A stretch of DNA of 64,000 bases from Escherichia coli (lineage in GTDB: Bacteria > Pseudomonadota > Gammaproteobacteria > Enterobacterales > Enterobacteriaceae). Of the stretch, positions 13,001-16,000 are shown piece by piece. Position 1 is the stretch's first letter. The number at the start of each line of letters is the position of its first letter. The stretch lies in the NCBI RefSeq assembly GCF_001677475.2, contig NZ_CP015229.1. One strand, given 5' to 3'. The position numbers were made by a program.

Positions 13001-16000
13001 ATGGTATTTTCAGAGATTATGAATTGCCGCATTATAGCCTAATAACGCGCATCTTTCATGACGGCAAACAATAGGGTAGTATTGACAAGCCAATTACAAA
13101 TCATTAACAAAAAATTGCTCTAAAGCATCCGTATCGCAGGACGCAAACGCATATGCAACGTGGTGGCAGACGAGCAAACCAGTAGCGCTCGAAGGAGAGG
13201 TGAATGGAAAGTAAAGTAGTTGTTCCGGCACAAGGCAAGAAGATCACCCTGCAAAACGGCAAACTCAACGTTCCTGAAAATCCGATTATCCCTTACATTG
13301 AAGGTGATGGAATCGGTGTAGATGTAACCCCAGCCATGCTGAAAGTGGTCGACGCTGCAGTCGAGAAAGCCTATAAAGGCGAGCGTAAAATCTCCTGGAT
13401 GGAAATTTACACCGGTGAAAAATCCACACAGGTTTATGGTCAGGATGTCTGGCTGCCTGCTGAAACCCTTGATCTGATTCGTGAATATCGCGTTGCCATT
13501 AAAGGCCCGCTGACCACTCCAGTAGGTGGCGGTATTCGCTCTCTGAACGTTGCTCTGCGCCAGGAACTGGATCTCTACATCTGCCTGCGTCCGGTACGTT
13601 ACTATCAGGGCACTCCAAGCCCGGTTAAACACCCTGAACTGACCGATATGGTTATCTTCCGTGAAAACTCGGAAGACATTTATGCGGGTATCGAATGGAA
13701 AGCAGACTCTGCCGACGCTGAGAAAGTGATTAAATTCCTGCGTGAAGAGATGGGCGTGAAGAAAATTCGCTTCCCGGAACATTGCGGCATCGGTATTAAG
13801 CCGTGTTCTGAAGAAGGCACCAAACGTCTGGTTCGTGCAGCGATCGAATACGCAATTGCTAACGATCGTGACTCTGTGACCCTGGTGCACAAAGGCAACA
13901 TCATGAAGTTCACCGAAGGCGCGTTTAAAGACTGGGGCTACCAGCTGGCGCGTGAAGAGTTTGGCGGTGAACTGATCGACGGCGGCCCGTGGCTGAAAGT
14001 TAAAAACCCGAACACCGGCAAAGAGATCGTCATTAAAGACGTGATTGCTGATGCATTCCTGCAACAGATCCTGCTGCGTCCGGCTGAATATGATGTTATC
14101 GCCTGTATGAACCTGAACGGTGACTACATTTCTGACGCCCTGGCAGCGCAGGTTGGCGGTATCGGTATCGCCCCTGGCGCAAACATCGGTGACGAATGCG
14201 CCCTGTTTGAAGCCACCCACGGTACTGCGCCGAAATATGCCGGTCAGGACAAAGTAAACCCAGGCTCTATTATTCTCTCCGCTGAGATGATGTTACGCCA
14301 TATGGGTTGGACTGAAGCCGCAGACCTGATTGTTAAAGGTATGGAAGGCGCGATCAACGCGAAGACTGTAACCTATGACTTCGAACGTCTGATGGAAGGC
14401 GCTAAACTGCTGAAATGTTCAGAGTTTGGTGATGCGATCATCAAGAACATGTAATTACTACATGTATTAAATATTGAAACGGGCGTATAACACGCCCGTT
14501 GTTTTATTTATGTGGATATTATTAATAGCATGTCGAGCATATTTATATGAAGCCCATTACTTGAGTCCATATGGGCATATTTTTATAATACAACTATTAT
14601 GCAAACATTTATTTGGTATTTCGCTTTCTCCTGGAGGACACTCTTGACTGCTTTTGAGTAAACTCCATAAATCCTTGTTGAATGGTGCGATATTATAAAT
14701 AGTAATAGGGTATTCTTTATCCTTAAAGATAATACCAGATTTAACCGGTTTAAATATACTGCCAGGAGGTAGAAATATAGTAGATTGATACCAGATGATC
14801 ATTTTCATATCACCCCATATGGCTGAAAAAGATATGCCGCATGTAGGTTGAATTATTGTGTCAATTACTATCCACTTCATTTGTTATGTCTTATCCCACG
14901 GTGCTTAATATAGTTCATTTGGATGTTCATTTCTTGACTTTGCATATGTGTATATTACTCCCCCAAGAATAAATTAATTAAAAATTAATGTCATTAACTA
15001 TATAAAGCAAAATTTAAAGCAAGGAATCTCAATAGAGATTAAACAAAATGAGATTTAGTGAAAACATTAAATTATTCACTTCGTTTTAGATTTGTTTAGC
15101 TAAAATGTTATACATTCAAATGACTGAACGTTCTGTAATTAAAACATAACCTTTATGCTATTTTGTGCCAATTTGCAAAACATTATGGTTGGCCTTTTAA
15201 TATAACGATAATGATGAATATAAGCATGACCTGAGAATAAGGTTTCAATTTTTGAGTTATATAGGAATGGTTAAACCCGTTCCTGACTAAAATACATATA
15301 ATCGGATGATGACTAAACCAAAACACATGTACGTTAAGTATTGAAACGGGCGTATGGCACGCCCGTTGGTTTTATAAATATGTTAACCGTTATAAAATAA
15401 CGAATAGAAAGTCAAGTGATCACATTTCAAATATCAATTTGATAGTATTGGCCTGGTGATTATTTATGGGTAGCAATAAAAAGACAGTATTTATCATCCA
15501 TAGGGATAGTCTCTGTACTTTTATTTCCATTATGCTAATGCCTTACTGAATTATGAAGCATTTCTTAAGATTCCAACTTTAGCTAGATTAATGGTTTATT
15601 GTTTTCTACATCTTCAATATATAAAAGCGTATTATCAATGGCGTAGTAACTGCGTTTGTTATGATTAACATCAGTAACCCACCGGAAAACGCCCGCGCTT
15701 GCCAGTGTTGAACAGTATTCCCGAAATGTAGATTTTCCGCAAATATGAAGCAATGCGGCCTCTTTTATTTTAACAGGGTTCTTGGTCGTACTAACTTTTA
15801 ACAGGTTCCTGGTTCCTCTTAATAACAAAACCGTGTCATCGTGAGTAATAATTCTGATGTTATCCGTAGCCAGATAATAAATGTAATGTGCAATACGGTG
15901 ATGTTTTAATTCTGAATAAAACCAGGAGAAGTTTTGCTCTTTTCTCACTTGCTCAAACATCTTTTGAAAAACAACGACCTGATCCATCAGGATAATAACC

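Follow-up and report, generated by a model that had tools for sequence, protein, structure and literature searches.

The 3' end of icd, the NADP isocitrate dehydrogenase gene of Escherichia coli, is already known as the integration site of prophage e14 and phage 21, and PMC6379469 places their crossover 165 nt upstream of the icd stop codon. Also known are the function of iraM and its patchy distribution, together with the related iraL. The product of iraM couples PhoPQ signalling (low Mg2+, acid) to the stability of RpoS, and the presence of the gene alters the general stress response. Control of iraM by PhoP is reported in PMC11825808, while PMC4045071 limits IraM to E. coli and Shigella and describes IraL, encoded on the potB genomic island of CFT073, which represents a published case of a mobile member of the family. 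The subject of this report is a stretch of 64,000 nt of E. coli DNA (contig NZ_CP015229.1, assembly GCF_001677475.2; the window), in which iraM lies between two copies (A and B) of the icd terminator. The literature passages that were retrieved mention neither a terminator duplication around iraM, nor an exact empty site, nor iraM shown to lie outside e14.

Copies A and B are true homologues of a single sequence, composed of the icd intrinsic terminator and an 18-nt leader, and they form the junction repeats of an insertion/deletion polymorphism. The features of the locus are as follows:

13204-14454, plus strand: icd (NADP isocitrate dehydrogenase), an intact open reading frame (ORF) of 416 aa without prophage interruption.
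14290-14454, plus strand: the final 165 nt of icd, the segment duplicated by e14/phage 21 integration, with the crossover at its 5' end; context only, outside the repeat.
14460-14507, plus strand: repeat copy A, the icd intrinsic terminator (hairpin 14478-14500 and T-run) with its 18-nt leader, also located 3' of the convergent iraM.
14508-15324, no strand: unique AT-rich insert of 817 nt; together with one repeat copy it makes up the unit of about 0.87 kb that is missing from empty-site genomes.
14557-14880, minus strand: iraM (RssB anti-adaptor, PmrD-like fold family PF11183), an ORF of 107 aa.
14881-15324, minus strand: upstream (regulatory) region of iraM within the insert, about 0.45 kb.
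15139-15183: ymgK, a 14-codon RefSeq annotation inside the iraM upstream region.
15325-15375, plus strand: repeat copy B (hairpin 15345-15367), a probable relic of the icd terminator with no plus-strand gene upstream.
15376-15987, minus strand: right flank common to empty-site genomes, with ymgL (15420-15530) and ycgX (15583-15987; DUF1398, PF07166).

A repeat search of the window detected a direct repeat of 39 nt (14467-14505 and 15334-15372; 90% identity, ungapped, spacing 867). When indels of 2 nt and 1 nt are allowed, the unit extends over 14460-14507 (A) and 15325-15375 (B) at about 88% identity, with 45 of the 48 bases of A kept and three additional bases in B. The initial annotation, which had reported a direct repeat of the icd terminator (at 14461 and 15326-15382) of about 55 bp and about 85% identity, was thus essentially right, although its length was slightly generous for a unit of 48/51 nt. 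The consensus of the two copies reads ACATGTA(CG)TTAA[A/G]TATTGAAACGGGCGTAT[AA/GG]CACGCCCGTTG(+1)TTTTAT, and the unit in its B state reads ACATGTGCGTTAAGTATTGAAACGGGCGTATGGCACGCCCGTT. Homology begins 6 nt past the icd stop codon, at the 6-bp palindrome ACATGT, and ends abruptly at both the left and the right edge; the hairpin of copy A starts 24 nt past the stop codon.

In both copies, a 9-bp GC-rich stem with 6 GC pairs encloses a 5-nt loop and is followed by a T-run. A terminator scan of the plus strand, which found 5 sites where 0.7 were expected, called the two copies (14478-14500 and 15345-15367). They therefore share the GC-rich stem-loop and T-run of an intrinsic terminator, whereas only copy A lies at the 3' end of a same-strand unit. 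For a 61-nt stretch that contains copy A, the minimum free energy (MFE) amounts to -21 kcal/mol (z = -4.4), compared with -16.8 kcal/mol (z = -1.6) for copy B. A search of copy A against Rfam gave only sub-threshold matches (tpke11, 23.5 bits against a gathering score of 43), which were treated as chance.

That copy B is an unrelated terminator, similar by chance or convergence, is next to impossible. Its generic shape is common to intrinsic terminators, but the identity also spans the non-structural 18-nt leader, the loop flanks and the T-run, and the top ungapped 39-mer match within 13000-17000 is 35/39, against 24-26/39 in 40 shuffles. Moreover, among complete E. coli genomes the unit is restricted to the icd locus and to icd-targeting phages (median of two places per genome), and the empty site described below joins both flanks exactly. 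The same restricted occurrence excludes a dispersed (REP/BIME-like) repeat family. An integron attC-like site was also rejected, as the hairpin ends, judged by eye, do not fit RYYYAAC/GTTRRRY; E. coli is not known to have a chromosomal integron.

The polymorphism was assessed in 5,426 complete E. coli genomes. The occupied layout, icd (or icdC)-A-iraM-ymgK-B-ymgL-ycgX, is present in 3,847-3,849 of them (about 71%), including 042, SMS-3-5, K-12, 2013C-4225, CB7453 and FDAARGOS_448. An empty site, from which the insert and exactly one repeat are gone, occurs in 1,037-1,039 genomes (about one fifth); here the left flank of copy A is followed by one A-state hairpin and then directly by the right flank of copy B (TATAAATATGTTAACCGTTATAAAATAACG...). 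The arrangement is thus not universal in E. coli, and the locus shows the two marks of a direct-repeat-flanked islet, namely repeats at both ends and a related empty site with a single copy. Empty-site genomes include, among others, clone D i14, ATCC 11775, ATCC 25922, Nissle 1917, CFT073 and 536, all six of which we take, from recognised strain names only, to belong to phylogroup B2. A third class of layouts comprises, e.g., strains with insertion sequences and O157 Sakai. In O157:H7 Sakai, icd is followed by Sp8, a prophage of the phage 21 type, beyond whose right end the iraM-ycgX-bluRF-ymg region is deleted as far as minE (locus extract 4211-5411), so this O157 strain became devoid of iraM by a route other than that of B2. 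The empty site of CFT073 agrees with the absence of iraM reported for this strain in PMC4045071.

Since A and B are direct repeats, exact removal of iraM together with one copy is possible, and the predicted A x B product, with the crossover inside CACGCCCGTTGTTTT, equals the exact empty-site sequence. A candidate for a natural A x B deletion was EcN_Sk (NZ_CP172017.1), a Nissle 1917 derivative and the only 100% match to a synthetic K-12 A x B deletion product, but it was rejected because it looks like an assembly artefact. This genome keeps all Nissle indels (insert absent, pdeG truncated) and carries about 200 foreign, phylogroup A-like single-nucleotide polymorphisms from icdC rightwards over more than 6 kb (locus extract 6019-12355), for which a reference-guided or mixed-sample assembly artefact is likelier than recombination.

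The repeat pair is independent of e14, since it both coexists with this prophage and occurs without it. In K-12 MG1655, e14 is integrated in icd, and the segment distal to attR contains icdC, copy A, iraM, ymgK, copy B, ymgL and ycgX, in this order. The initial annotation had stated that e14 is absent from the window, and blastn of K-12 e14 against the whole window indeed gave no match; strain 042 likewise has both copies and no prophage. Because K-12 carries A-iraM-B distal to icdC and the window carries iraM without e14, iraM lies outside e14, and the statement in PMC4045071 that it "is found on the e14 prophage" does not hold.

The initial annotation had also suggested that the repeats may be the attachment-site scar of an excised e14, a suggestion that, extended to phage 21, has only a very slight probability. 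In its favour, icd is the integration site of both elements and the window contains no prophage there. However, K-12, with e14 in place, has both copies, outside the prophage and beyond icdC, and the layout is found in about 71% of genomes whatever their prophage status. Furthermore, excision restores icd and leaves no duplication. The crossover does not coincide with the repeat boundaries either: the e14 feature of K-12 begins 165 nt before the icd stop codon (icdC being 165 nt long), as is also indicated in PMC6379469, which corresponds to about position 14290 of the window, i.e., 170 nt to the left of copy A, and matches neither repeat edge. Finally, no icd remnant precedes copy B: local alignment of the 206 nt upstream of it with the icd 3' end scored 18, below the mean of 19.0 for 2000 shuffles, 1408 of which did as well, and the corresponding K-12 sequence gave the same null outcome. 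A decayed icdC at this position was consequently rejected. As a separate observation, the last 165 nt of icd are unusually variable (92-100% identity).

The icd-targeting phages are nonetheless linked to the repeats in one respect, in that they carry terminator copies of their own. The annotation of phage 21 shows an ICDH-like 165-nt pseudo-ORF, a terminator, arm sites and int, and phage 21, Sp8 of Sakai and a prophage of E. albertii each carry the icd 3' end with a near-identical terminator; judging from these sequences, the import of an own terminator copy appears to be the rule for elements at icd. The phage 21-type host-like segment ends with ...GTTGTTTTAT, at the same nucleotide as the A/B homology, the junctions being ...GTTGTTTTAT|GATGATTT in phage 21 and Sp8, and ...GTTGTTTTAT|TTATGTGG in copy A. 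The terminator copy of e14 is diverged. About 40 nt beyond it align in register with the right flank of copy B, in the empty-site order (score of 30, compared with a mean of 19 for 3000 shuffles, of which 22 did as well), which at p ~0.007 may be taken as a weak hint. No recognisable arm-type repeats follow copy A, and the e14 arm-type motif TTATCAAAA is not above chance after copy B. In E. whittamii (locus extract 8660-8700) and in Escherichia sp. MOD1-EC5189, a host-type icd hairpin is followed by e14-type left-arm sequence (GTTATCAAAACCCC...), which suggests that e14-family remnants are present at icd in other Escherichia species.

The two copies differ in their conservation. The stem of copy A is intact in 8 of 8 iraM-positive strains (the window, 042, K-12, SMS-3-5, 2013C-4225, CB7453, FDAARGOS_448 and 631), as well as in 2012EL-2448 and in the iraM-less WP3-W18. 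The A-state hairpin is also found in the empty sites of clone D i14 and A13, in E. whittamii and in Escherichia sp. MOD1-EC5189, while the empty site of SA186 and the phage 21-type copies of E. albertii and Escherichia sp. 93.0816 deviate from the A state by no more than a few bases of the leader, ahead of the stem. One lineage carries an inversion of the central 7 nt of copy A (TATAACA to TGTTATA) with pairing kept (locus extract 1679-1701; also in WP3-W18 and 631), a textbook example of hairpin-loop inversion. Copy B, in turn, shows the derived changes +CG, A>G and loop AA>GG in all seven aligned sequences (the window, 042, SMS-3-5, CB7453, FDAARGOS_448, K-12 and 2013C-4225), and these changes are present in strain 631 as well. 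K-12 (G-C to A·G) and 2013C-4225 have further changes that break its stem. ORF, promoter and Rfam scans revealed no plus-strand ORF, promoter-like site or Rfam family upstream of copy B. Because the stem of A is conserved, that of B is decaying and no plus-strand unit lies upstream of B, we conclude that copy A is probably the working icd terminator and copy B a relic.

Copy B could instead be functional, as a terminator or insulator for an antisense plus-strand transcript arising in the insert, or as a barrier that separates the iraM promoter from ymgL-ycgX. The hairpin and T-run remain intact in the window, 042, SMS-3-5, CB7453 and FDAARGOS_448, where they are scored as a plus-strand terminator. 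We nevertheless regard such a role as rather improbable: no plus-strand gene or Rfam family ends at B, no convincing plus-strand promoter was found upstream, on the minus strand only TTTC follows the hairpin, the stem is disrupted in the K-12-type and 2013C-4225-type alleles, which stand for many genomes, and B2 strains manage without copy B.

The initial annotation described the segment between the copies as AT-rich and containing only iraM, which was confirmed: its GC content is 0.26-0.34, compared with 0.50-0.53 in icd (about 0.51), and iraM is the only long ORF, accompanied by the annotated ymgK. AT-richness is not confined to the insert, as the flank through ycgX, common to empty sites, is AT-rich too. 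The iraM gene is convergent to icd and its stop codon lies about 50 nt from copy A. Its predicted product is 93% identical over the full length to proteins named IraM, has a precomputed PF11183 assignment and is encoded by an ORF (14557-14880) that public E. coli assemblies contain in identical form, which identifies it as a member of the IraM family and a putative RssB anti-adaptor. The dN/dS values of iraM between lineages are 0.1-0.4, which points to purifying selection.

Members of the IraM family occur on mobile DNA. Paralogues with 60-67% aa identity are encoded by opposite-strand morons located between stxB or Q and nanS-p/holin in Stx and other lambdoid prophages; these are probably IraL-like, their ORFs occupy 3206-3541, 5001-5324 or 5001-5336 of the respective locus extracts, and the ORF is unannotated in many phage records. 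Another paralogue is placed in an IS21/PerC/GGDEF context, in an IS-rich island. As the GC content is 0.26-0.34 and paralogues reside on prophages and an IS-rich island, the composition and cargo of the insert indicate a foreign origin. Searches with the non-coding parts of the insert gave no match in phage records and none in true plasmid records. In the plasmid collection, full-length matches to the insert are limited to records of 92 kb-4.9 Mb, which we take to be chromosomes or chromosome fragments filed as plasmids, and the remaining matches correspond only to an iraM paralogue.

Regarding regulation, two PhoP-box-like matches are present upstream of iraM (15029-15045 and 15082-15098), each with 2 mismatches and individually non-significant. 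A perfect PhoP box (GGTTTATTTAATGTTTA) is located elsewhere in the window, at 8590-8606 on the minus strand, upstream of the phoPQ operon (roughly 6-9 kb), which itself lies 5-6 kb from icd; iraM, being PhoP-regulated, is thus near its regulator genes. The gene order in this part of the window is rluE (minus), icd (plus), iraM (minus), ycgX (minus), bluR and bluF. For region 9000-14454, which includes icd, no RefSeq complete E. coli genome exceeds 99.0% identity, and the window therefore represents an E. coli lineage outside that set.

Natural loss of iraM through the repeats can be followed in one lineage, the members of which have the same Icd, YcgX and BluF proteins. FDAARGOS_448 carries A-iraM-B. 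Strain 631 contains IS200C at the identical point (...CGCCCGTTGTTTTT|) past both A and B (locus extract ~802 and ~2380), so the two copies are equivalent targets of IS200C. In WP3-W18, copy A is followed by a single IS200C and the flank, and iraM is gone (locus extract ~1702), the organization expected of the recombination product.

As to how and when the unit integrated, we infer the following history. A small AT-rich module of the horizontal, prophage-moron type, consisting of iraM and its own 0.45-kb regulatory region, would have been placed at the T-run end of the icd terminator by an element that, in the manner of phage 21 and e14, brought a copy of that terminator along. The terminator would thereby have been duplicated at both junctions, in an insertion probably older than the split of the present E. 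coli lineages. Copy A would have remained the icd terminator, while copy B, with nothing on the plus strand to terminate, would have decayed. Recombination between A and B may then have removed iraM and one copy exactly, leaving the empty site with one terminator that is fixed in phylogroup B2. The attachment core could have been located just past the stop codon, at the ACATGT palindrome; alternatively, a phage 21/e14-type prophage could have integrated inside icd, with a later deletion that spared only iraM and the terminator of the displaced copy. This account as a whole (old insertion of a terminator-carrying module, decay of copy B and loss in B2 by repeat recombination, all independent of e14) seems to us somewhat probable.

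Three lines of evidence favour an old insertion followed by loss in B2: a tree of the flank, the synonymous divergence of iraM, and the changes in copy B common to iraM-positive sequences. In the flank tree (about 20 differences over 618 nt, with a clock assumed), the B2 alleles are nested among iraM-positive alleles, grouping with SMS-3-5 (phylogroup F) and FDAARGOS_448, and with midpoint rooting iraM-positive lineages fall on both sides of the root. The dS of iraM between lineages is 0.07-0.18, compared with 0.01-0.06 for ycgX, located only 0.7 kb away, which argues that the insert coalesces at least as deep as its surroundings. Taken together, these data make an old insertion, later lost in B2, appear distinctly likelier than a late gain. 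The empty state of B2 is therefore probably a loss. The proposal of the initial annotation that iraM is a small integrated module was borne out in part: the precise empty site, the AT-rich composition and the presence of the family on mobile DNA agree with it, while no integrase was found and the occupied layout is the majority state, so that the evidence leans toward an old insertion lost in B2 and not toward a recent arrival.

The opposite polarity assumes that the single-terminator site of B2 is ancestral and that iraM was gained once, after B2 had branched, bringing along an already diverged copy B; A would then be the host copy and B the imported one. This is a possible, though less probable, history. 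The empty-site hairpin is in the A state, as is the terminator of icd in E. whittamii, E. albertii and other Escherichia, and the differences in B need no time in place if B arrived diverged, as in the case of the terminator copy of e14, whose host-like segment also continues in the empty-site register, as described above. The occurrence of IraM in E. coli and Shigella only, and the lack of any genome combining the B2 flank with the insert, fit it as well. Against it, the B2 flank alleles do not form an outgroup but are nested beside SMS-3-5, a dS of iraM of up to 0.18, exceeding that of the flank, is hard to reconcile with a late single gain, and the copy imported by phage 21 or e14 lands on the left (the position of A), not on the right.

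Outgroups do not inform on polarity, because icd is occupied by prophages or e14-type remnants in E. albertii and two other Escherichia species (loci anchored on RluE), and in Citrobacter the bluR cluster is not beside icd. Cluster listings with BluR and YcgX gave only E. coli and Shigella names. A pattern scan of genome contigs returned E. whittamii alone, whose downstream DNA differs; the scan missed ATCC 11775 despite the exact pattern, and its negatives carry little weight. A metagenome scaffold with an 'E. albertii' RluE was rejected as an outgroup, since it is K-12-like E. coli.

Beside these uninformative outgroups, several points weigh against the old insertion and B2 loss. Should B2 be basal in E. 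coli, a gain would be as parsimonious as a loss, and the flank tree has the narrow basis given above. A chimeric query joining an insert end to the B2-type flank found 0 genomes with this combination, which leaves no intermediate within B2. Proteins named IraM were met only in E. coli and Shigella, which fits an insertion preceding the species less well. No integrase, recombination-directionality gene or recognisable arm-type site was found in or beside the insert, and no site-specific recombinase ORF or remnant within 14508-15324; with no phage or plasmid carrier either, the integrating element is hypothetical. Lastly, copy B may have a residual function, as its hairpin is intact in several lineages, including the window.

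A different origin of the occupied state would be a phage 21/e14-family prophage in icd, with A as the phage-borne terminator, iraM as the adjoining cargo and B as the displaced terminator, from which one illegitimate deletion took int, the rest of the prophage and icdC. At its right edge, copy A ends with 4 T and then AT, exactly like the phage 21-borne copy, in contrast to the 5 T of empty sites and of copy B of K-12; e14-type elements keep variable cargo between the phage-borne terminator and intE; and the right flank of copy B has a weak similarity to the beginning of the e14 left arm. IraM-family and DUF1398 (ycgX) genes are lambdoid prophage genes, the latter family being common in such prophages. 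This sub-model is nonetheless doubtful, since the right end of the deletion must fall a few bases from the icdC stop codon, no trace of icdC is left, the insert shows no phage-arm homology and the e14 arm-type motif is not enriched.

A further reading, which we consider unlikely, is that the icd terminator serves, or once served, as a third, hitherto unrecognised attachment site within the icd hotspot, used by an element distinct from phage 21 and e14. If so, the core would be at ACATGT, with homology up to the end of the T-run, and the 0.87-kb terminator-to-terminator iraM unit would be a minimal surviving cassette, still precisely excisable and re-insertable via its homologous anchors. This would help to explain the lineage-specific wiring of PhoPQ to RpoS stability, with B2 devoid of IraM.

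A repeat-bounded unit of 0.87 kb that lies outside e14 and is exactly absent in the uropathogen-rich B2 gives a clean structural account of the presence/absence polymorphism of iraM, and the repeat pair offers a simple, PCR-testable route of its loss.

Comparison with known systems places the locus closest to e14 and phage 21 at icd. The site is the same, and there too the incoming element brings replacement host sequence including the icd terminator, so that direct repeats flank the insert, with the phage 21-borne copy ending at the very nucleotide at which the A/B repeat ends. In contrast to these prophages, the iraM repeat begins past the icd stop codon instead of 165 nt within icd, and has no icdC-like remnant; the insert measures 0.8 kb, as opposed to 15-45 kb, and its 817 nt hold iraM and ymgK only, without int, xis or other phage genes; and in K-12 the pair coexists with e14 as a separate, more distal structure.

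Deletions between short direct repeats in E. coli proceed by RecA-independent slipped misalignment or short-homology recombination, and the match between the predicted A x B product and the empty site conforms to this pattern. Here, the A x B event is a prediction from sequence, and the one documented natural loss used the IS200C copies located after each repeat.

The iraL gene on the potB island of CFT073 (Hryckowian et al. 2014, PMC4045071) resembles iraM in belonging to the same family and in being horizontally acquired and patchy; unlike in that paper, which places iraM on e14, the gene is found here outside this prophage and in its absence. Islets flanked by repeats of gene 3' ends, such as DLP12 at argU with its 47-bp repeat (PMC6379469), share with the iraM locus imperfect direct repeats of about 50 nt, AT-rich cargo of phage origin and a precise empty site. 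The target in the present case is an intrinsic terminator past a protein-coding gene and not a tRNA 3' end, and with no recombinase left, membership is by footprint only. The icd gene is a repeatedly used integration hotspot with a downstream stack of prophage leftovers, and the iraM unit adds one more layer to it, not a new kind of system.

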